This document shows, piece after piece, positions 4,948 through 56,982 of a DNA stretch of 64,000 bases (positions within the stretch are counted from its first letter, which is position 1; each line of letters starts with the position of its first letter). The notes under the pieces are model-generated. The model did not search any database, was not told where the DNA came from, and worked only from the letters and a program-made list of their open reading frames with translations. This DNA is from Chloroflexota bacterium (GTDB lineage: Bacteria > Chloroflexota > Anaerolineae > JACRMK01), in contig JACRMK010000046.1 in the NCBI GenBank assembly GCA_016235055.1, positions 34,958-98,957 of the forward strand, written 5' to 3'. The position numbers and the translations under genes were made by a program.

Positions 4948-6343
4948 CGTGTCGTTGTCTCCCGGGAAGTAATGCTCGCAAGCGGGCGAGCAGGTTGCTC
5001 ACAAAATCGGCCAGCCGCTGCAGGATGCCTGGCGCGGCCGGCGGCGCATCGACGAGGCTGGGCGGGGCGTGCTCCAGCAGACGCGCTGTCACGCCGCCGG
5101 CGTCGTCAAAGTCGAGACGCGCATAGTTGAGGCGACGCAGGGCGGCGTATGCGTCCGGTTTAGCGAACAGTTCGCGCCAGCGGCTGTCGTTGGCCCCGGA
5201 CAGGTCCAGTTGCCAGACCCAGCAGCCGGTATTGATGTAGCGCGCGCCGTTCCGCAACTCCATATCGACCGGCCGGTGCGTGTGCCCCAGCAGGACGACC
5301 GTCGCGCCATTCGTCTGCGACAACTGGGCGGCGCCGTCGATCAGGCGACGGTCCTGCTCCTCCTGCATCTGCTGAGCCGTCGCCTGCGGATCGGCCGACG
5401 CGCCGGGCGCCGGCGTTTCGCGGGCGACCGCGTCCATTTCATCCAGCGCGTGGCCCAACAGCGCATGCACTTCGGCGCGATAGGCGTCGCTGGTGCGGTA
5501 GCGCTGGGCAGCGAATTCGGGGTTCGTTTGCAGGTTCGTCAGCCACGAATCGCGGATCTCGTCGCGCACGCCGGCCAGGCGCGGCGCGGCGCGCAACAGC
5601 GCGACCAGCGTGCGGAACGCAAACGACGGGTCGTATTTGAGCGCGTGCCAGACCAGCGCGCCGATCGGCTTGACGCCGTCCACCCAGTACTTGTCGCGCT
5701 CGACGCGGTTGAAGAACTCGATGACGAACTTCGAGCCCCACGGCGTCTCGATCTGCGACGGATCGCCCGGCGCGAGCGGCGCAGCCATGTCCCGGAACCG
5801 GTTGGCCGACTCGGCGTACTGGTTGCCATGTTCCATGCAGGCTGCCCCGTGCCGGTAGCTGACGGCTGGGAACTCCACCAGCGTGCGCCGCTCGCCGCCC
5901 GCGCCGATCGCCTCGCGCAGCGCCTCCTGCACGGCCGACCAGTACCAGTGCGGGTCGTGGTTGCCGCGCAGGATGACGAGCCGGCGGCGCGGCGCATCGG
6001 CGCGCAGCCAGTCGCGCAGCGCGTCGAACAGCGGCCCATGCCCGGCGATGACGTGCCGCAGCCGCTGGGCCGACGCGCTCGGGCCCATATCGGCGTAGTC
6101 GGCGGGCGGGTAGTCCTGCGCGGGATCAAACGAAGCAGCGCGTGGCACCTGCAGGAACTCGACGAAATCGCCGTTGATGACCAGTTCGGCGGCGCGGCCG
6201 CTCTCCTCGCTCTCGCGCGCCAGCGCGGCCAGCAGCGAGGCGAACGCGCCATCGCTGGCGAAGTCTTCGAGCGTGTTTCCGGCGTAGAACCGGCCCGCCC
6301 CGAGATGCAGATCGCTCAGGACGGCGACGATATCGCCTGCCAT
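4937..6343 (-). CDS. Metallophosphoesterase (calcineurin-like phosphoesterase)
   Basis: Start chosen at MAGDIVAVLSDLHLG (7 codons downstream of alternative ATG at 6364; track ORF begins further upstream at 6460); D-x-H, GDFVE, GNHD metallophosphatase motifs; 3' end overlaps amidohydrolase start by 11 nt. Confidence 0.85.
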   Translation of the reverse strand: MAGDIVAVLSDLHLGAGRFYAGNTLEDFASDGAFASLLAALARESEESGRAAELVINGDFVEFLQVPRAASFDPAQDYPPADYADMGPSASAQRLRHVIAGHGPLFDALRDWLRADAPRRRLVILRGNHDPHWYWSAVQEALREAIGAGGERRTLVEFPAVSYRHGAACMEHGNQYAESANRFRDMAAPLAPGDPSQIETPWGSKFVIEFFNRVERDKYWVDGVKPIGALVWHALKYDPSFAFRTLVALLRAAPRLAGVRDEIRDSWLTNLQTNPEFAAQRYRTSDAYRAEVHALLGHALDEMDAVARETPAPGASADPQATAQQMQEEQDRRLIDGAAQLSQTNGATVVLLGHTHRPVDMELRNGARYINTGCWVWQLDLSGANDSRWRELFAKPDAYAALRRLNYARLDFDDAGGVTARLLEHAPPSLVDAPPAAPGILQRLADFVSNLLARLRALLPGRQRHDED

Positions 6344-6349
6344 GCGCGG

Positions 6350-6355: not shown

Positions 6356-6523
6356 CCACGGCATGACGGCGTGACAGGATGACAGGCTGGCCGGGTGACA
6401 CGGTGACACGATGAAGAGATGACGGGATAACACGATGACAAGGGGCAGCTTGGGGCGCACTATGAGCGCAGATTCGCGTTATTCGCGGACAGGTTGTTTT
6501 TAAGAAGTCCGACGGTTTGACGG

Positions 6524-6529
6524 TATAAT
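6524..6529 (+). promoter_or_regulatory. -10 hexamer TATAAT 7 nt upstream of epimerase ATG (leaderless-type promoter)
   Basis: GGTATAATGCCGCGTATG; no Shine-Dalgarno between box and ATG at 6537. Confidence 0.5.
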
Positions 6530-6536
6530 GCCGCGT

Positions 6537-7487
6537 ATGTCCTTATGTCTCGTAACCGGCGCGGCTGGCTTTGTCGGCTCGACGCTATCTGAGCGGCTGC
6601 TTACCGACGGCCACACCGTCGTCGGCATCGATTGCTTCACTGACTATTACGCACGCGACGTCAAAGAGAGCAACCTTGCGACGCTGCGCCGACACCCGCG
6701 TTTCACGCTGATCGAGCGAAACCTCGCGACCGGCGACCTCTCGGACGTCATCGACGGCGTTGATGCCGTGTTTCACCAGGCCGGCCAGCCCGGCGTCCTG
6801 CCCTCCTGGGGCCGGCTGTTCGACCAGTACGTGACCAACAACATCATCGCGACACAGCGCTTGCTCGAAGCGCTCAAGGGGCGGCCGCTGCAGCGCTTCG
6901 TTTTCGCCTCGTCGTCCACCGTGTACGGCGAAACGCCCGACCTGCCGGTGCGCGAGACCTCCCTGCCGCGCCCGATCGTGCCGTACGGCGTCACCAAGCT
7001 GGCCGCCGAGCACCTGGTCAATATGTACCACCTCAACTTCGGGCTGCCGGCCGTGATCCTGCGCTACTTCAGCGTGTACGGCCCGCGCCAGCGGCCCGAC
7101 ATGGCGCTCCACAAGTTCATCAATGCCATCGCGCGCGGCGAGACGATCCAGATTCGCGGCGACGGCGAGCAGACGCGCGATGCGACGTACGTGGACGACA
7201 TCGTCGAGGCGAACGTGCTGGCACTGCGCGCCGGCGACGGCGTGCTCGGCAGCGTGTTCAACATCGGCGGCGGCGAAAGCGCCAGCGTGAACCAGATCAT
7301 TCAGCACATGGAGCAGATCATCGAGCGCGCCGCCGTGACGACCCATGTGCCGACGCAGCCCGGTGAACTGCGCCACCAGTGGGCCAATACGAGCCGCGCG
7401 CACGACGCGCTCGGCTTTGCGCCGCACATGCCGTTCAGTCAGGGCTTGCGCCACCAGATCGAATGGCAAATCGGCGGCGGCCAATGA
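6537..7487 (+). CDS. NAD-dependent epimerase/dehydratase (SDR family, UDP-sugar 4-epimerase-like)
   Basis: N-terminal TGAAGFVGS Rossmann motif, YxxxK catalytic pair (YGVTK); start taken at second ATG (MSLCLV). Confidence 0.9.
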   Translation: MSLCLVTGAAGFVGSTLSERLLTDGHTVVGIDCFTDYYARDVKESNLATLRRHPRFTLIERNLATGDLSDVIDGVDAVFHQAGQPGVLPSWGRLFDQYVTNNIIATQRLLEALKGRPLQRFVFASSSTVYGETPDLPVRETSLPRPIVPYGVTKLAAEHLVNMYHLNFGLPAVILRYFSVYGPRQRPDMALHKFINAIARGETIQIRGDGEQTRDATYVDDIVEANVLALRAGDGVLGSVFNIGGGESASVNQIIQHMEQIIERAAVTTHVPTQPGELRHQWANTSRAHDALGFAPHMPFSQGLRHQIEWQIGGGQ

Positions 7488-17668: not shown

Positions 17669-18472
17669 TTAGTAGTGCGTCCGCACCGGCATGCCGACGT
17701 AGCCGAAGCTGTAGAAGTACGCCGCGTCGTCGAGCGTCAGGTTCACGCAGCCGTGGCTCATCGGGTGCCCGAAGTTGCGGTGCCAGTAGGTGCCGTGCAG
17801 CGCGAAGCCGCGATAGAAGTACATGATGTTCGGCACGCCGGGCAGGCGGTAGTAGTCGCGGGCCGCGCGCGAGCCGCCGGACATTGTCTGCGACTTGACC
17901 TTGGCCCAGACGCGGAACAGGCCGACGACCGTCGGATGACGACGCACGCCGGTCGAGGTCAGCACGGTCTTCAGCGGCGTCGAGCCGCGATAGGCGGTGA
18001 CCGTCTGCCGCGAGATGTTGACGTCCACCCACATGCCGGAGGTCGGCGGGTTCGCCACCGGGCCGGCCAACGTCGTCTCGGCGGTCGTGCGCGGCCAACC
18101 GGGGGCGTCGCCGGGCTTCGCAGGCGGCGCGCCAAGCACGCCGGGCGGCAAGCCGAGCGACAGCGCGCTCTCGAAGGCGGGCGTTTCCGTGGGCGGCATC
18201 GCGAATGCCTCGCTGCTCAACGGCACGCCGCTCATATCCGGTCCACTGGCGGCCAACTCATCGTCGGCAAACAGATCGGCATCGGCGCCGGCCATGATCG
18301 GGTCAAAGCTCAACAGCGCGACCGGATCGATCTCCGCTGACTGCTGCAGCAAATCAGCGGCAACGGCAATGCGCTCCTGCGACACAAAGGCCAGCCCCGT
18401 GCCGATCACGAGCAGCAACAGACTTGCAGCGAGCAGTATACGGTTCTTCAATGTGCCCCCTTTGGCGCTCAA
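17669..18472 (-). CDS. L,D-transpeptidase (YkuD domain), membrane-anchored
   Basis: HGTYWHRNFGHPMSHGCVNL contains the YkuD catalytic His/Cys motif; N-terminal hydrophobic anchor; start is TTG (18472, or a second TTG at 18451 preceded by AAGGGGG). Confidence 0.8.
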   Translation of the reverse strand: MSAKGGTLKNRILLAASLLLLVIGTGLAFVSQERIAVAADLLQQSAEIDPVALLSFDPIMAGADADLFADDELAASGPDMSGVPLSSEAFAMPPTETPAFESALSLGLPPGVLGAPPAKPGDAPGWPRTTAETTLAGPVANPPTSGMWVDVNISRQTVTAYRGSTPLKTVLTSTGVRRHPTVVGLFRVWAKVKSQTMSGGSRAARDYYRLPGVPNIMYFYRGFALHGTYWHRNFGHPMSHGCVNLTLDDAAYFYSFGYVGMPVRTHY

Positions 18473-19566
18473 CGTGCAAAGTTAGGTTGTTCCGTTTTAC
18501 TGCCATTAAGATGGCTTGTCAAGCGCTGCCAATCGGAAACCATCGCTTCGACGCGTACGGCCGCCTCTGCATCTTCCGGCAGCGGGCCGTCGTGCAGGTC
18601 GGCGTACGACGCGCGCTTGTGCGGCGGCACGCAGCCGGCCAGCGTGCCGAGCATCAAGCTCCAGCAGCGCGCGACCGTTTCCGGATGATAGCCGCCGCCG
18701 CCGAACAGCAATAACCGCCCGCCGCACAACTGGTGCGCGGCCGCGTGCAGGCGCTCAGTCAGCGCCTGGTAGGTCTGCGTGGTCAACTGCAATCCGACGA
18801 GTGGGTCGTTGGCGTGCCCGTCGGTGCCGAACTGGACGAGCACGAACTGCGGCCGGTAGGCGCGCAGCGCGGGCAGCGCCACGCGATCGAACGCGTCGAG
18901 GTAGGCGCTGTGTCCCGTCCGGCGCGGCAGCGGCAGGTTGATGTTGTGGCCGAGGCCGGCGCCTTCGCCGTGGTCTTCCAAGCGGCCGGTGCGCGGGTAG
19001 AAGCGCCCGTCGTACTGGTGCAGGGAGATGGTCAGCACCGGTTCGGCGTACAGCAGGTTCTGCGTGCCGTCGCCGTGGTGCCCGTCCACGTCTACGACCG
19101 CGATGCGCGATAGCCCCTGCGCCTGCAGCCAGCGCACGACGATGACGATGTCGTTGAAGATGCAGAACCCGCCGGCGCGGTCGCGCTGCGCGTGGTGCAG
19201 GCCGCCGCTCGGGTTGAAGACGTGGTCGGCTGCGCCATCCATGATCAGCCGCGCGCCGAGCAGCGAGCCGCCGACGCTCAGGCGCGCGCGCTCGAACACG
19301 CCGGGGTAGGCCGGCGTGTCGCCGCCGTCAAGGAAGCCGCTGCCCTCGGCGTCGCGCTGCCGGACATAGTCGACGTACTCCGGCGTGTGCACGCGCAGCA
19401 GTTCGTCCACGCCGGCCGGCGCCTGCCGCTCGACGCGCAGCCCGTTGGCAAAGAAGCCAAGCGACTCAAACAGACGGTAGCTGTCGCGGTAGCGCATCCA
19501 CGAGCGCTGCATCCGCGCGAAGCCGCGCTCGTTGTAGCGCGGGTGGTAAATGAGGACGGTCGACAT
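18469..19566 (-). CDS. Histone deacetylase-family protein (AcuC / acetoin utilization-like deacetylase)
   Basis: 365 aa from internal ATG; zinc-site motifs DVDGHHGDG and GGGGY typical of HDAC/arginase-fold deacetylases. Confidence 0.85.
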   Translation of the reverse strand: MSTVLIYHPRYNERGFARMQRSWMRYRDSYRLFESLGFFANGLRVERQAPAGVDELLRVHTPEYVDYVRQRDAEGSGFLDGGDTPAYPGVFERARLSVGGSLLGARLIMDGAADHVFNPSGGLHHAQRDRAGGFCIFNDIVIVVRWLQAQGLSRIAVVDVDGHHGDGTQNLLYAEPVLTISLHQYDGRFYPRTGRLEDHGEGAGLGHNINLPLPRRTGHSAYLDAFDRVALPALRAYRPQFVLVQFGTDGHANDPLVGLQLTTQTYQALTERLHAAAHQLCGGRLLLFGGGGYHPETVARCWSLMLGTLAGCVPPHKRASYADLHDGPLPEDAEAAVRVEAMVSDWQRLTSHLNGSKTEQPNFAR

Positions 19567-19573
19567 GCGGGGT

Positions 19574-19909
19574 CTACCAGATCCAGCGCTTCGGGCTGTA
19601 GCCGAAGACGAGCACGCCGCAGGCCGCGGCGGCCGAGACGACCGCCATGGCGATGACATCTTCGACGGGCGTCACGCCGAACAACCAGATGCCAAGCACC
19701 TGCTGCGGGTCGAAGTACCACGCGCCCCACTGCCCGCCGAGCGGGTCGGTGACGAGCATCCACAGTTCGGCGATCAGCACGACCGTGATGATTATGCGGC
19801 GGCGGCTCCAGAGAAAGCGCGCGTTGCGCGCCCACAGGATCGCCATGAACAGCGCGCCCATCGCCCCCGTCATCACGAGATAGGTGGCGCGCGGGGGAAT
19901 CAGATCCAT
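19574..19909 (-). CDS. Lycopene cyclase domain protein (heterodimeric CrtYc/CrtYd type), subunit 2
   Basis: 111-aa membrane protein with PVED (PxE[ED]) motif; ATGA overlap with upstream subunit. Confidence 0.75.
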   Translation of the reverse strand: MDLIPPRATYLVMTGAMGALFMAILWARNARFLWSRRRIIITVVLIAELWMLVTDPLGGQWGAWYFDPQQVLGIWLFGVTPVEDVIAMAVVSAAAACGVLVFGYSPKRWIW

Positions 19910-20223
19910 CAGACGCGGCCCTCCGCTTCGGCCAGGACGATCGTCAGTGCGCCGAACAACACGGTGATGGCGGCGATCCAGATCCACTCTTCAATCGGCA
20001 GGCCGAGCAGCCAGATATTGGCGATGTGCTCCGGCGCGTAGAACCAGACGCCGCGCCGCACGGCCAACGCGTCCCACAGCCAGCCGCCGGCCAGCGAGCC
20101 GAGCGTGACCCACGTCAGCGCGCGCCGCTGCTTCCAGAAGACCTGTCGCCAGCGCAGCAGCGCCAGCAGCGGCACGCCCATGCAGAGCGCCAGCCAGATC
20201 AGGTATGTGTAGTGACCGAACAT
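19909..20223 (-). CDS. Lycopene cyclase domain protein (heterodimeric CrtYc/CrtYd type), subunit 1
   Basis: 104-aa membrane protein with PIEE (PxEE) motif. Confidence 0.75.
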   Translation of the reverse strand: MFGHYTYLIWLALCMGVPLLALLRWRQVFWKQRRALTWVTLGSLAGGWLWDALAVRRGVWFYAPEHIANIWLLGLPIEEWIWIAAITVLFGALTIVLAEAEGRV

Positions 20224-20233
20224 AGCTGTTATC

Positions 20234-20452
20234 GGGGATCGGGTTTCAGGTGTCAGGGATCAGGGGATAGGGTATAGGGCATAGTGAGAGCGTCTTGCGC
20301 CGGCCGTCGACATCCGCTTCGCGCAGCAACGCCTTGCTCCGATCCCGAATACCCGATGCCCGGACTCTATGCCTTGTTCCCCGAAACCTGACCCCTGATT
20401 CTCTATTCCCTATCCCCTGATCCCTGACACCCGATCCCTGATACCCGACCCC
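20234..20452. repeat. Large imperfect palindrome in divergent promoter region
   Basis: Left arm GTGTCAGGGATCAGGGGATAGGG is mirrored as CCCTATCCCCTGATCCCTGACAC about 140 bp away; arms extend to about 50-85 bp with mismatches. Confidence 0.6.
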
Positions 20453-20500
20453 CGCTCAACGCGTTTGATTATACCGCCGATATTGTGGTATTGTGATGAT

Positions 20501-21724
20501 ATGCCGCGCGCTGAGCCGCGGCTTCCGAAAATGTCAGACCTCCGAATCAAAGGGCTTGTCGCCGCGATGAACCGCGCCCGCGAGGGGTGGAGTCACGGCG
20601 TGCCCGTCGCCGAAGCCGACGATTTCCGCCGCATGGTGATGGATACGGTCGCGCAAGTCGAAGCGATCTGCCGGCGCAACCAGGTCAAGCCGTCGCAACT
20701 GCCCGGCCCCTCGTACCGCGCGTACCGCTACCTCAAGTCGCTCGATCTGGCCGCGCTGCCGGTCTGCGACGAGTCGGCGGCGCCGTCGCGCGCCGTGCGC
20801 ATCAAGAACGCCATCGCGACCGCGAACCGCATCCGCGCCGACCTGCTGGCGCTGCCCGGCCGCGCCGAACCGGCCGCCCTGCAGCATGGCCCCGCGGCCG
20901 CGCTGCTGAAGCGCATCCAGTCGCAGTCGCGCGCGATCGAGGAGATCTGCGCGCGGCTGTCGAGCTCGCCGGCGCGCCTGCCGCTGCCGTCGCGCCGCGC
21001 GTACCAGTGGCTCAAGTTCCTCAGCGCGACCGACAATCTGCTGTCGCACTGGGCGACGCTGGCGCTGGTGCGCGAGATCATCGGCAGCCTGCGCTGGATC
21101 AAGCAGCGCTGGCCCGGCTACGCCTTCAGCTTCGAAATCTACCCGAGCGACTATCTGTACCGCGCCCAGGTCAATCACACGCAGGTGCGCATCGTCGCCG
21201 CGCCCGGTTTCGTCGGCGCGCCGCCCGATGCGCTCGAAGCGTTGGTGCGCGCGGCGGTCAGCCGCCGGCAGGCGAGCGCAACCAACGCGGTCAAGCGCTA
21301 CATCAACGGCGAGGACTTCGCCGAGGCGTCGCTGGCGTTCGAGTTGTGCCTGGAGCGCCCCGACGGCGGCCTGAAGGGGCGCCACTACGACCTGGCCGAG
21401 GTGTTCGCGCGCGTCAACGCCGCGTACTTCGACGGGTGCATGCCGCGCCCGCGCCTGCAGTGGAGCCGCACCGTCACCGAGCGCACGATGGGCCACTATC
21501 AGGTCGAGAGCGACACGGTGATGATCAGCATCGCGCTCGACGACCATCGCGTGCCGCAGTACGCCATCGACTTCGTGATGTACCACGAACTGCTGCACAA
21601 GCAACTGGGCGTGCAGTTCGTGGACGGGCGGCACTACGCCCACACGCGCGCCTTCCGCGAGGCCGAGAAGCGCTTCAAGCGCTACGACGACGCCGAGGCG
21701 TTCCTGCAGTCGCTGGCGCGCTGA
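20501..21724 (+). CDS. Putative zinc metallohydrolase with C-terminal DUF45/SprT-like HExxH domain and N-terminal internally repeated domain
   Basis: C-terminus ...ISIALDDHRVPQYAIDFVMYHELLHKQ...HTRAF resembles YgjP/DUF45 metal-dependent hydrolases; two about 33-aa N-terminal repeats (...EAICRRNQ...PSYRAYRYLK / ...EEICARLS...PSRRAYQWLK). Confidence 0.65.
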   Translation: MPRAEPRLPKMSDLRIKGLVAAMNRAREGWSHGVPVAEADDFRRMVMDTVAQVEAICRRNQVKPSQLPGPSYRAYRYLKSLDLAALPVCDESAAPSRAVRIKNAIATANRIRADLLALPGRAEPAALQHGPAAALLKRIQSQSRAIEEICARLSSSPARLPLPSRRAYQWLKFLSATDNLLSHWATLALVREIIGSLRWIKQRWPGYAFSFEIYPSDYLYRAQVNHTQVRIVAAPGFVGAPPDALEALVRAAVSRRQASATNAVKRYINGEDFAEASLAFELCLERPDGGLKGRHYDLAEVFARVNAAYFDGCMPRPRLQWSRTVTERTMGHYQVESDTVMISIALDDHRVPQYAIDFVMYHELLHKQLGVQFVDGRHYAHTRAFREAEKRFKRYDDAEAFLQSLAR

Positions 21725-21739
21725 CCGGAAAGCCCACCG

Positions 21740-21955
21740 CAGAGCACGCAAAGAGCGCAAAGAAAAGCTTTGTTGACCGTGAATAACGCGAATTGGCGCT
21801 AGTCGAACGCTAACCGCAGAGAACGCAGAGGAAAACAAGACCAACCGCAAAGCACGCAAAGAGCGCAAAGGAGAACCCTGCTTTCGATTGGCGTCGATTC
21901 GCGTTATTCGCGGATAGAGAGCTTTTCTTTGCGGTCTTTGCGCCCTTTGCGGTTC
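21740..21955. repeat. MITE-like element, family 2 (nested inverted repeats; inner GAATAACGCGAAT / ATTCGCGTTATTC)
   Basis: Outer inverted repeat CGCAAAGAGCGCAAAG / CTTTGCGCCCTTTGCG and inner CCGCGAATAACGCGAAT-type termini; related copy at 56831-56974 and solo ends near 2712, 6465, 24808. Confidence 0.6.
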
Positions 21956-22026
21956 AATGTTCTTGGTGTCCATTCGTGTTCCTTCGTGGACAAAGGTGAT
22001 GTTGAATCTTCCCTGGGGATTTTCTA

Positions 22027-23052
22027 ATGACTGACAAGCTGACCATTATGATCGCCTCGCAACTGGAGCCGGAGCACATCGAGCGCATCCGCGCCGTCGA
22101 TCCGCGCATCGAGGTGCTATACGACCTCGCGCTCGTGCCCCAGATGCGCTACATCGCCGACCACACCGGCGGCCCGTTCCAGCGCACGCCGGAACAGCAG
22201 GCGCAGTGGCTCGACTGGCTTAAGCGCGCCGAGGTGCTGTTCGACTTCGAGCGCGCCGCACTGAAAGATCTGCCGGTCACCGGCCCGCGCGTCAAGTGGA
22301 TCCAGTGGACGAGCGCCGGCATCGGCCAGGTGATCAAGGGCGCGGGCATCGACCGGCTGCCGATCGCGCACACGACCGCCAGCGGCGTGCATGCGCGGCC
22401 GCTGGCCGACTTCTGCCTGATGGTCATGCTGATGACGGTCAAGAACTTCCTCTGGATGCAGCGCGACAAGCGTGCGCACCACTGGGAGCGCTACTGCGGC
22501 GAGGAACTGACCGGCAAGACGCTGGCGATCGTCGGCATGGGGCGCGTCGGCAGCGAGGTGGCGCGCACCGGCAAGCTGATGGGCATGTGTGTGATTGGCA
22601 TGCGCCGTGGCACCGAGCCGGCGCCGTACGTCGACCGGATGGTCACGCGCGCGGAACTGCCCGACATGCTGCGCGTGGCCGACTTCGTGGTGCTGATCGC
22701 GCCGCACACGCCCGAGACGGAGAACCTGATCGGTGGTACGGAACTGGCGCAGATGAAGCCGACCGCCGTGCTGATCAACATCGCGCGCGGCCAGTTGGTG
22801 GACGACGCCGCACTGGTGCGCGCCCTGCAGAGCGGCCAGATCGCCGGCGCGGCGATCGACGTGGCGCGCGTCGAGCCGCTCGACCCGGCGTCGCCGCTGT
22901 GGGCGATGCCGAATGTCGTCATCAGCCCGCACTCGGCCAGCACCGTGACGGCCGAGAACGATCGGATCATGGACATCTTCTGCGAGAACATCGGCCACTA
23001 CCTGCGCGGCGAGCCGATGCGCAACCGCTGGAACCCCGATCTGCTATATTGA
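22027..23052 (+). CDS. D-isomer-specific 2-hydroxyacid dehydrogenase, NAD-binding
   Basis: GxGxxG-type motif IVGMGRVG, conserved catalytic R/E/H region (NIARG..., ISPH). Confidence 0.85.
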   Translation: MTDKLTIMIASQLEPEHIERIRAVDPRIEVLYDLALVPQMRYIADHTGGPFQRTPEQQAQWLDWLKRAEVLFDFERAALKDLPVTGPRVKWIQWTSAGIGQVIKGAGIDRLPIAHTTASGVHARPLADFCLMVMLMTVKNFLWMQRDKRAHHWERYCGEELTGKTLAIVGMGRVGSEVARTGKLMGMCVIGMRRGTEPAPYVDRMVTRAELPDMLRVADFVVLIAPHTPETENLIGGTELAQMKPTAVLINIARGQLVDDAALVRALQSGQIAGAAIDVARVEPLDPASPLWAMPNVVISPHSASTVTAENDRIMDIFCENIGHYLRGEPMRNRWNPDLLY

Positions 23053-24765: not shown

Positions 24766-24839
24766 AACTTTTCACCGCAGAGAGCGCAGCGAGAACCTTT
24801 GTATCCGCGAATAACGCGAATCGGCGCGAATAGAACAAC

Positions 24840-24995
24840 TGCGTCCCCCAATGAACGCAAAGAGCGCAGAGGTTACTCCCTGCGCTCTCGTCATCTCTTC
24901 ATCCAGTTATCTTGTCATCTCTTCATCCAGTCATCTTGTCATCTCTTCACCTTGTCACCTTGTCACCTTGTCATCTTGTCATCCCGTCATCTTTC
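24840..24995. repeat. Short tandem repeats (CTTGTCAYC units) next to solo family-2 repeat end
   Basis: TCATCTCTTCATCCAG... then CACCTTGTCACCTTGTCACCTTGTCATCTTGTCATCC; similar GTGACAGGATGACAGG tract in inverted orientation near 6380-6450. Confidence 0.55.
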
Positions 24996-25479
24996 AGATG
25001 ACCGGCTTCTCCTTGTCGGTCAGGTTGACGACGACGGCGCGGCTCGCCTTGACCAGGTCGGCCGGCGCAATCAGGATCTCCTCGCCCCACTGGCCGGTGC
25101 CGACGCCGAGCACGCTCTCAATCAGCAGTGACGCTTCGAGGAACGAGCGGAAGCCCGGCCTCTGCCAGTGAAACGGCGGGATCGAGCCGATCTCGTAGCC
25201 GGTCGTCGTTTTGACCGCTTCCGGGCTGGCGAGCTTGATGTTGCGCGAGTTGAGCACCTTCTTCAGGTGCCCGGAGATCGCGCTCTGGTCGCCGCCGAGC
25301 ATGATCAGTGCCCGCTCGCCGCGGTCGTTCTCGAAGATCAGCGTCTTGACCATCTGCCGCTCGTTGAAGCCGAGCGCGCGCGCCACCGAGGCCGCGCCTT
25401 TCTCGATGTCGGTCGGGAATGAGCGCCGCTCGTATGGAATATTCTGCTGGTCGAGGTAGTCGTGGGATGGCAGGTTCAT
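24994..25479 (-). CDS. ybaK: YbaK/ProX-type aminoacyl-tRNA deacylase (Cys-tRNA(Pro) editing domain)
   Basis: 161 aa from internal ATG with AGGAGA upstream; central G-rich loop and K...GG editing-domain pattern (MVKTLIFENDRGERALIMLGGD). Confidence 0.75.
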   Translation of the reverse strand: MNLPSHDYLDQQNIPYERRSFPTDIEKGAASVARALGFNERQMVKTLIFENDRGERALIMLGGDQSAISGHLKKVLNSRNIKLASPEAVKTTTGYEIGSIPPFHWQRPGFRSFLEASLLIESVLGVGTGQWGEEILIAPADLVKASRAVVVNLTDKEKPVI

Positions 25480-46259: not shown

Positions 46260-47024
46260 ATGCGCAAAGAGATAGCAACCGTCGTGTTGGGATTAACAAT
46301 GATACTCGCGGCTTGCGGGCCGACCCCCACACCCGCCGCCATGATGCAAGCCGCGATGCCAACGCCTGACGCAATGATGGCCAAGCCGACGCCCGATGCG
46401 ATGATGGCCAAGCCGACGCCCGATGCCATGATGGCCAAGCCGACGCCCGACGCCATGATGGCGCGCCCAACACCCGACGCGATGATGGCGCACCCAACAC
46501 CCGACGCCATGATGGCGCACCCAACACCCGACGCGATGATGGCGCATTCGACCCCGGATGCCATGATGCAAGCCCCGGCCTGGTTTGGCGCATCGCTGAC
46601 CGATGTGCGCACCGGTCAGACGTTCTCGCTCAACGGCTTCAAAGGCAAGGTGGTGCTGGTCGAAACGATGGCGCAATGGTGTCCGAGTTGCCGCACGCAG
46701 CAGACGCAGGTGAAAGACCTGCGCGCGATGTTTGCCGGGCGCGATGATCTGGTGACGATCGCGCTCGACGTGGATCCGAATGAGCAGGCCGCCGACCTGA
46801 AGAAATACGTGCAGGCCAACGGCTTCGAAGGGTTCTACGGCATCGCGCCCGCCGCCGTGGCGCGCGAGATCGGCAATCTTTATGGCGCGCAATTCCTGAA
46901 TCCGCCGTCCACGCCGATCCTGATTGTGGACCGCCACGGCCTGGCGCATCCCCTGCCGTTCGGCATCAAGAGCGCACGCGATCTGGCGAGCGCCATCGAG
47001 CCGTACCTCAAGGACGCCATGTAA
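46260..47024 (+). CDS. TlpA/ResA-like thioredoxin-fold lipoprotein with tandem nonapeptide linker
   Basis: Lipobox ILAAC; seven to eight repeats of A[KRH]PTPDAMM; redox motif WCPSC; AAGGAG upstream. Confidence 0.85.
   Translation: MRKEIATVVLGLTMILAACGPTPTPAAMMQAAMPTPDAMMAKPTPDAMMAKPTPDAMMAKPTPDAMMARPTPDAMMAHPTPDAMMAHPTPDAMMAHSTPDAMMQAPAWFGASLTDVRTGQTFSLNGFKGKVVLVETMAQWCPSCRTQQTQVKDLRAMFAGRDDLVTIALDVDPNEQAADLKKYVQANGFEGFYGIAPAAVAREIGNLYGAQFLNPPSTPILIVDRHGLAHPLPFGIKSARDLASAIEPYLKDAM
46341..46560 (+). repeat. 27-bp tandem repeat array inside the tlpA-like gene (coding, in frame)
   Basis: GCCAAGCCGACGCCCGATGCGATGATG-type unit repeated about 8 times with third-position and K/R/H variation. Confidence 0.8.
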
Positions 47025-56690: not shown

Positions 56691-56830
56691 TGCGGGTGCG
56701 TAGGGGCGCGTTGCACGCGTCCCGCAACGGGGCACATGCAATGTGCCCCTACGTTATCCGCAGGTGGCAGATGTCGTTCTGCGAAACGATCATCCGCTGC
56801 CCGCCCAGCACCTCCGCCGCATAGACTCAT

Positions 56831-56974
56831 CCACGAAGGGACACGAAGGAACACCAAGAACACCTTTATCCGCGAATAACGCGAATGAACGCGAATAGAG
56901 CCCACAAACTCCAGAACTGATTGGCCTCGATTCGCGTTATTCGCGGATCGCTTTTTATTTGTGTTCCTTCGTGG
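56831..56974. repeat. MITE-like element, family 2 copy (nested inverted repeats)
   Basis: Outer CCACGAAGGGACACGAAGGAACAC / GTGTTCCTTCGTGG; inner CCGCGAATAACGCGAAT / ATTCGCGTTATTCGCGG. Confidence 0.6.
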
Positions 56975-56982
56975 ACGGTGTG

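Follow-up and report, generated by a model that had tools for sequence, protein, structure and literature searches.

A long imperfect palindrome lies between a lycopene cyclase operon and a divergent SprT-like gene in a 64,000-nucleotide stretch of a Chloroflexota genome of about 65% G+C (assembly GCA_016235055.1, contig JACRMK010000046.1, positions 34,958 to 98,957; henceforth the window, in whose coordinates all positions are given). The analysis gives good support to its identification as a convergent (head-to-head) pair of arrays of degenerate G-rich heptanucleotides, of the GGGNATC / NNTCAGG type. The original prediction, made from the sequence alone, had described a 23-bp perfect inverted repeat at this place and offered a regulator operator pair, a miniature inverted-repeat transposable element (MITE) or a cruciform-prone element controlling carotenoid genes, without noticing that each arm is built of degenerate 7-nt units in tandem. 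In place of an operator specific to carotenoid genes, or of a mobile element, we propose a slippage-prone, hairpin-forming leader before a heterodimeric lycopene cyclase operon. The repeat class to which the palindrome belongs is already known, and the pair in the Chloroflexota crtY leader is an addition to it.

The left arm (20230–20285, plus strand) is a G-rich array of about eight degenerate heptamers, delimited by the sequence itself, by its period-7 self-identity and by Tandem Repeats Finder, whose units read TATCGGG, GATCGGG, TTTCAGG, TGTCAGG, GATCAGG, GGATAGG, GTATAGG and GCATAG. It lies 7 nt from the crtYc start codon, and on the crtYc mRNA strand it is C-rich (CCCUGAU...). The right arm with its extension (20335–20454, also given on the plus strand) is a C-rich heptamer tract of about 17 units (CCGATCC, CGAATAC, CCGATGC ... 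CCCTGAT, CCCTGAC, ACCCGAT, CCCTGAT, ACCCGAC), found through the direct-repeat families D1 and D2 and through Tandem Repeats Finder; unit types in the two arms include GGGGATC, GGGTTTC, AGGGATC, GGGGATA and GGGTATA. At a lag of 7, the left arm had a self-identity of 0.73 and the right arm one of 0.57, whereas the value was 0.36 in the 49-nt central spacer (20286–20334, unstranded) and about 0.3 at other lags, and Tandem Repeats Finder returned period-7 rows at 20256–20284 in the left arm and at 20387–20454 in the right. The spacer is thus non-repetitive, without a period-7 peak. When the arms were aligned to each other, the right one was collinear with the left and some 30 nt (4–5 units) longer, the surplus units appearing as a 29-nt bulge in the DNA fold; a length difference of this kind is a signature of unit gain or loss.

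Both copies of the perfect repeat could be located within these arms, GTGTCAGGGATCAGGGGATAGGG at 20250–20272 and CCCTATCCCCTGATCCCTGACAC at 20408–20430 (neither assigned to a strand), and they are complementary at all 23 positions; the distance between these perfect cores is 135 nt, and not the approximately 100 bp first given. The weaker extensions that had been noted are also real: by the repeat finder each arm is 51 nt long, with 84% complementarity (20232–20282 and 20398–20448, with 115 nt between them). A DNA folding check, which had been proposed, revealed pairing far beyond chance: the segment 20224–20464 folded at -60.1 kcal/mol, compared with -33.4 +/- 3.4 kcal/mol for dinucleotide shuffles (z = -7.8), and 0 of 200 shuffles folded as well. 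As RNA of the minus strand, the palindrome folded at -125 kcal/mol (z = -6.8). A regular-expression scan detected four canonical G-quadruplex (G4) motifs in the whole window, two of them in the arms, namely G3 N4 G4 N3 G3 N4 G3 at 20256–20279 on the plus strand and a cluster of seven G3+ tracts at 20408–20453 on the minus strand. The palindrome is non-coding, as had been stated, and a simple terminator does not explain it either, the flanking genes being divergent and the scan returning no terminator-like site and no U-tract; a search of 19500–22500 against Rfam (E <= 1) gave no relevant family.

The complete palindrome is identical in two independent Logan assemblies of the same strain (L001 and L003), and the same architecture is present in the diverged relatives L137 and L138 described below; it is therefore not an assembly artefact. 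In a third independent assembly, L002 (SRR12113397), the contig ends within the palindrome spacer, a break in one of three assemblies that is in keeping with the expectation that inverted repeats break assembly. Loci such as this one tend to be split or lost in metagenome-assembled genomes (MAGs) built from short reads.

Heptameric G-rich repeats of the GGGNATC type were described by Rehm et al. (2015) in Xanthomonas and Nostoc (PMC4692102). Xanthomonas carries about 185 arrays per genome, 89–93% of them intergenic and with a mode of four units, including 70–75 convergent array pairs per genome that form inverted repeats; array length varies extensively at the same loci between Xcc and Xac (PMC4692102). 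Of the repeats located upstream of an open reading frame (ORF), the largest share lies less than 50 bp away from it, on its non-coding strand, and only 7–8% of the class lies between divergent ORFs, while (GGGAATC)n oligonucleotides form G4 in vitro and the C-rich strand forms an i-motif (PMC4692102). The palindrome of the window shares with this class each sequence-level feature that was tested, i.e. 7-nt G-tract units, at least four G3 tracts, placement on the non-coding strand and convergent orientation, G4 folding itself being predicted; its abundance was judged within the 64 kb alone, where a single heptamer locus of the GGGNATC unit type is found. Both arrays are intergenic, and on both sides the G-rich strand is the non-coding strand of the nearest ORF. 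The resemblance extends to the degenerate, heterogeneous units with a G3-4 tract followed by (N)ATC, to the inverted pairing and to lengths that vary between relatives. The differences are that the host is a member of the Chloroflexota and not Xanthomonas or a cyanobacterium, that the arms have 8 and about 17 units compared with a mode of 4, and that the pair stands between divergent genes, a setting rarer than any other among the published repeats. The spacer is long as well, with a unique core of about 50 nt and 115 nt between the well-paired arms, whereas the pairs that we collected from other bacteria had a median spacer of about 18 nt. The window pair is in effect of exceptional size for its class and stands in the gene context that is least common.

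A block of back-to-back promoters (20465–20497, both strands), recognised by consensus match and by conservation, is located immediately to the right of the palindrome and outside it. On the minus strand, a candidate -35 box ATCACA (20497–20492), an 18-nt spacer and a perfect -10 box TATAAT (20473–20468) point through the palindrome to crtYc; this is the sole sigma-70-like site in 20100–20650 (10 of 12 matches, 0.1 sites expected), and it is also the only candidate in the relative L136. On the plus strand, the alignment reads a -35 box TTGATT (20465–20470), an 18-nt spacer and an extended -10 box TGgTATTGT (20486–20494) directed toward the SprT-like gene. The hexamers of the block are invariant in L136, L137 and L138, the spacer between the plus-strand hexamers varies, and the palindrome arms stay at least 10 bp outside the -35/-10 block. 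Because this conserved promoter block lies to its right, the whole palindrome is probably transcribed as a leader, and transcription of crtYc through the entire array pair seems on balance the likelier arrangement.

The explanation we tentatively prefer, at somewhat less than an even chance, is that the palindrome makes up a crtYc leader, about 238 nt in length, whose folding into a long hairpin has an effect in cis. The heptamer arrays would lengthen and shorten by whole 7-nt units through replication slippage, as judged from the 4–5-unit indel between the arms and from the differing unit numbers in L137, and the two arms would be kept similar to each other. Transcription of crtYc from the TATAAT promoter to the right would turn the whole palindrome into the 5' leader, about 238 nt long, of a crtYc-crtYd-HDAC-YkuD mRNA (HDAC, histone deacetylase), which would fold co-transcriptionally into an imperfect hairpin with the 23-bp perfect duplex and some 50–85 bp in total. 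The base of this hairpin would come to lie about 10 nt from an AUG that, by inspection of the sequence before it, has no Shine-Dalgarno sequence. The duplex could then act in cis on mRNA stability or on access to the start codon, or be cleaved by a double-strand-specific RNase such as RNase III, and it would tune rather than switch the expression of the cyclase operon. In this restricted form, as a putative leader effect alone, the control of carotenoid genes by the palindrome that was first proposed is possible.

To our knowledge, among transcribed heptamer repeats only that of the hmw1A 5' untranslated region (UTR) has a mechanism resolved by experiment. In this gene of Haemophilus influenzae, the heptamer repeat in the 5' UTR forms a long hairpin that is processed by RNase III (PMC12721329). 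The likeness, if the leader model is true, is that a heptamer repeat arm in a 5' UTR pairs with a complementary purine- or G-rich arm and has an effect in cis. The hmw1A repeat nevertheless consists of perfect (ATCTTTC)n units and forms a phase-variable contingency locus, and its cleavage by RNase III was shown experimentally, whereas the window palindrome has degenerate units in arrays that make up both arms, with no difference among three samples, and its transcription and cleavage are putative. As regards the traits of contingency repeats, the three metagenome assemblies are identical, unit number differs between lineages, and the units are degenerate.

Nearer relatives were reached through CrtY homologues, namely L136 (90% identical), L137 and L138 (83%) and an orthologue in Caldilineaceae (66%). 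L137 and L138 are syntenic with the window, and on the crtY-sense strand their conserved promoter block is followed by a long G-array (about 19 units), a spacer conserved in part, a C-array (about 11 units) and the ATG. Alignment of the spacer of L137 with that of the window revealed the conserved blocks GCGTTGCTG, CGACnGCCnGCGCA and TCACTATGCCC. The unit sequences and unit numbers of L137 and L138 differ from those of the window, and in them too one arm is complementary to the other (over 25 nt at 88% and over 61 nt at 74%), giving an RNA fold of -128.6 kcal/mol (z = -6.7). The DNA of L136, on the other hand, is identical to the window over the 5' end of the SprT-like gene and the promoter block up to ...TATAATCAAACGCGTT and unrelated beyond, and its crtY leader holds instead a copy of a dispersed ATTCGCGTTATTCG..GGA family. 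Along 20455–20600 the 100% identity between L136 and the window stops exactly at the palindrome edge, and their CrtY proteins are only 90% identical, which points to the repeat as a possible breakpoint of recombination or replacement. The points of divergence are ...AACGCG on one side and the crtY ATG itself on the other, and the comparison of the window with L136 disclosed no clean empty site, target-site duplication or excision/insertion boundary. Among SprT-like homologues with usable contigs (51–56% identical), the gene does not adjoin crtY and no arrays were found upstream. The comparison with relatives proposed at the outset hence does not reveal a conserved operator, L137 keeping the architecture with other units and L136 being without it. 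The array pair has thus been inherited, and reshaped by unit changes, in one pair of lineages and is dispensable in another, the opposite of what a conserved operator would display.

Several of these observations weigh against the leader interpretation. L136 keeps only a few degenerate G-units and has no C-array, the structure of its leader is unexceptional (z = -0.4), and in the Caldilineaceae orthologue the arrays were looked for and none was found; because both do without the palindrome, any function of the array pair would be dispensable. The retention of a hairpin in L137 could reflect homogenisation within the palindrome and not selection. The minus-strand promoter is a candidate identified by consensus match, and its -10 box overlaps the -35 box of the promoter of the divergent SprT-like gene; the conservation of the block may stem from the latter, and because the two promoters overlap, conservation does not assign the block to one gene. 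Furthermore, a weak candidate for a second crtYc promoter was noticed by inspection inside the spacer (minus strand; -35 TCGACG 20310–20305, 18 nt, -10 CACTAT 20286–20281), with 8 of 12 matches, under the threshold of the scan, and with hexamers that are conserved in L137. A leader starting there would consist of the C-rich array alone and is predicted to be unstructured (-6.6 kcal/mol, z = -0.5). Finally, the published study of the GGGNATC class identified no function for it and found neither a regulatory role nor a connection with gene function (PMC4692102).

In another reading, which we regard as a serious possibility though not the probable one, the palindrome is a neutral by-product, i.e. 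self-propagating simple-sequence DNA made by slippage and homogenised between its arms in a permissive leader or intergenic region, with no selected effect on either crtY or the SprT-like gene. It would account for a palindrome that is absent or degenerate in L136 despite an identical promoter block, for an L136 leader that has received another dispersed repeat as if it were a dumping ground, for the absence of the arrays in more distant orthologues, for the degeneracy of the units and for a published class without functional association. It fits less well with some 230 bp of non-coding DNA and the complementarity of its arms having been kept in two lineages whose CrtY sequences diverge at 17% of residues, with a strong cross-phylum orientation bias (see below) that is hard to obtain by a purely neutral process, and with the preference for four units reported in Xanthomonas (PMC4692102).

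Structure at the level of DNA has also to be considered. G-quadruplexes in the two arms, one per strand and each formed by the template strand of the gene that reads outward, might respond to the negative supercoiling that arises between divergent transcription units and so modulate or insulate both promoters; a cruciform, or hairpins formed by slipping, might do likewise. We consider this improbable as the principal explanation, in spite of the position between divergent genes, of the share of the canonical G4 motifs of the 64 kb that falls in the arms (two of four) and of the G4 and i-motif formed in vitro by the related (GGGAATC)n repeat. Arrays that contain only GG runs in other phyla imply that G4 formation is not a general property of such repeats, the conserved promoter block sits outside the pair and not between its arms, and the published class is depleted between divergent ORFs (PMC4692102). 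Regarding the cruciform that was originally proposed, the locus is indeed prone to form structures, which is physically reasonable, but a DNA cruciform is unlikely with well-paired arms 115–135 bp apart. Cruciforms with a spacer of more than 100 bp are kinetically unfavourable. A hairpin of RNA or of single-stranded DNA, or G-quadruplexes, are more plausible than a DNA cruciform.

Transcription of the C-rich array alone, from the promoter TCGACG-18-CACTAT in the spacer, would yield an unstructured, G-poor leader that might serve as a landing pad for ribosomes or as a Rho-loading (rut-like) tract just before crtYc. The conservation of both hexamers and their spacing between the window and L137, the predicted lack of structure and the crtYc AUG without a Shine-Dalgarno sequence are all compatible with such a leader, as are the TAACTGA heptamer arrays reported by MacGregor directly upstream of start codons in Beggiatoaceae, cyanobacteria and Bacteroidetes, for which a translational role was proposed (PMC4679880). 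On the other side, the match to a promoter is weak, L136 must still express crtY without this region, and the complementary G-array is left unexplained, and we accordingly give this alternative a small probability. The TAACTGA repeats resemble the window arrays in being intergenic heptamers with a CTGA core, in adjoining start codons that lack a Shine-Dalgarno sequence and in their scattered distribution; they differ in being AT-rich, almost always direct (1 indirect in 169 sets) and without G4 potential. Cyanobacterial short tandemly repeated repetitive (STRR) heptamers are intergenic heptamer arrays comparable to the TAACTGA repeats. More generally, heptanucleotide units are the commonest among long prokaryotic simple-sequence repeats, a finding of Mrazek as summarised by MacGregor (PMC4679880).

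A paired operator of a carotenoid regulator, or a MITE, is very improbable, for although a dyad symmetry adjoins carotenoid genes and 230 bp with inverted ends are MITE-like, the element has no second copy in the window (BLAST of element and spacer matched only itself, for arms and spacer alike) or in a scan of metagenome contigs with a 37-nt spacer probe (0 exact matches, which means only that the species or a second copy lies outside that collection), no target-site duplication, clean empty site or boundary against L136, arms that lie outside the -35/-10 block and whose sequence is altered in L137 and absent from L136 despite the conserved promoter block, and generic units whose like stand beside unrelated genes in many phyla. 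The palindrome does share with repetitive extragenic palindromic (REP) elements, bacterial interspersed mosaic elements (BIMEs), REP doublets forming hairpins (REPINs) and MITEs an extragenic position, a palindromic sequence and the capacity to form hairpins, REP elements being often intercistronic. Unlike REP elements and MITEs, which are dispersed copies of one conserved sequence, it is single-copy in the window, and its arms are internally repetitive and change by unit number. Some further readings, namely CsrA-type GGA sites, a HutP-like UAG-N4 spacing in the left arm, mimicry of Shine-Dalgarno and anti-Shine-Dalgarno sequences, TGA stops in three frames and a -35 hexamer (cTGACA) provided by the last heptamer, were set aside, as a partial likeness in sequence is all that speaks for them.

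The distribution of such pairs in other bacteria was approached with the 16-mer CCYGATCCCTGAYACC, which we searched for in 596 Gb of species-representative genomes; about a thousand chance matches are expected by our estimate, and the scan is unfit for copy numbers, but among the matches listed were heptamer arrays of many phyla. A period-7 detector was run on 974 kb of loci fetched from the CCYGATCCCTGAYACC matches listed. Arrays were present there in MAGs and isolates labelled Gemmatimonadota, Acidobacteriota, Alpha- and Betaproteobacteria, Actinomycetota, Chloroflexota and others, very often as inverted pairs, and pairs with the G-array first and the C-array second occur in at least five bacterial phyla. 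G-rich heptamer arrays are therefore not peculiar to Xanthomonas and Nostoc, and are found in Chloroflexota, Acidobacteriota, Gemmatimonadota, Actinomycetota and Proteobacteria too. Many arrays in other phyla hold GG runs only (ACCTGAC and ACCTGAA units). A typical collected pair had arms of 4–5 units and a spacer of about 18 nt; by rough ORF calls, 30 of the 38 flanked pairs were located between co-directional ORFs, 6 between divergent and 2 between convergent ones, usually leaving less than 30 bp to the ORF on either side, and a T-run followed the pair in 1 of 26 cases.

The order of the two arrays was strongly biased. With at least three units per arm, the fetched loci contained 35 G-first pairs and 0 C-first pairs; viral contigs contained 8 G-first and 0 C-first stretches when three units were required in each array (3+3), and 36 G-first and 1 C-first stretches at 3+2 units. 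That the C-first arrangement never occurs was entertained and is refuted by 104 C-first stretches (3+3 units) in metagenome contigs, where this orientation alone was counted. Many of the metagenome C-first pairs that were printed have no G/C skew (GTCCTGA/TCAGGAC), some are genuine, and 14 of 106 C-first matches had further arrays beside them, most being not junctions of adjacent pairs. The G-first polarity, about 40:1, is thus a strong bias and not a rule, and no published explanation accounts for it. Should the bias reflect function, it would point to a widespread uncharacterised cis-element; should it reflect mutation, it would constrain how inverted repeat arrays arise. A bolder proposition, which we think unlikely, is that pairs of the form (NNTCAGG)n - spacer - (CCTGANN)n are one class of functional nucleic-acid element across at least five phyla, with a common mechanism behind both the polarity and the filling of gaps between co-directional genes. 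If so, the candidate mechanism would be an orientation-independent RNA hairpin in which the G-rich arm always comes first, or alternatively G-rich non-template DNA that blocks transcription arriving from either side, and the crtY leader, exceptional in its size, could help to identify it.

The location first proposed for the palindrome, between a lycopene cyclase operon and a divergent SprT-like gene, was borne out by the annotation of its neighbours. The gene on the left (19909–20223, minus strand, 104 aa) is a crtYc-type lycopene cyclase half-domain gene (Pfam PF18916, Lycopene_cyc), followed downstream in the operon by a second Lycopene_cyc gene, a histone-deacetylase-family gene and a YkuD L,D-transpeptidase gene (Pfam, and gene calls in L001–L003). 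Carotenoid genes with histone-deacetylase-family and YkuD partners (17669–20223, minus strand) make an unusual operon, the order of which is shared by L001–L003. The gene on the right (20531–21724, plus strand) encodes an HExxH protein, placed in the SprT-like family by homologues that carry PF10263; the protein encoded in the window gave no Pfam match at E <= 0.001. Named homologues come from Anaerolineae/Anaerolineales, Caldilineaceae and unclassified Chloroflexota MAGs. The right array ends 47–77 nt from the start of the SprT-like gene, which is probably the ATG at 20531 (MSDLRIK...), conserved in homologues. A leaderless start at the ATG at 20501 was also considered and is weakened by L137, which has GTG there together with the conserved downstream ATG. 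Elsewhere in the window, at 6325–6345 (minus strand) and 6520–6540 (plus strand), TATAAT is followed after 6–7 nt by ATG in two divergent genes, a spacing that suggests leaderless mRNAs in this organism.

Other short repeats are found in the window. The 18-mer ATTCGCGTTATTCGCGGA is dispersed in 7 copies over the 64 kb, 6 of them exact, where 0.06 would be expected: 2726–2743, 21776–21793, 24804–24821 and 56869–56886 on the minus strand and 6472–6489, 21897–21914 and 56930–56947 on the plus strand. They are often arranged as inverted pairs in nested intergenic palindromes, and a further copy of the family occupies about 385–402 in L136, in place of the heptamer palindrome in the crtY leader. 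This is a true REP/MITE-like dispersed family of this genome, of which the palindrome is not a member.

Arrays of short units, of 8–9 nt, are also present in other intergenic regions of the window. Intergenic inverted arrays of 9–10-nt units (CGCAAAGAG / CTCTTTGCG and CACGAAGGAA / TTCCTTCGTG), nested around an ATTCGCG... element, are found at 21738–21988, 24776–24871 and 56820–56980; they face each other like the heptamer pair, with other units. Octamer arrays with a TGACA core occur at 6358–6440 and 24886–24996 (GATGACAG..., and on the other strand GATGACAAG...), and their purine-rich strand begins beside the nearest gene boundary, a positional rule like that reported for the heptamer class. 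Lastly, a tandem repeat with a period of 27 (also 54) and about 7.8 copies of CCAACGCCCGACGCCATGATGGCGCAC extends over 46359–46568 and, its period being a multiple of three, may be coding.

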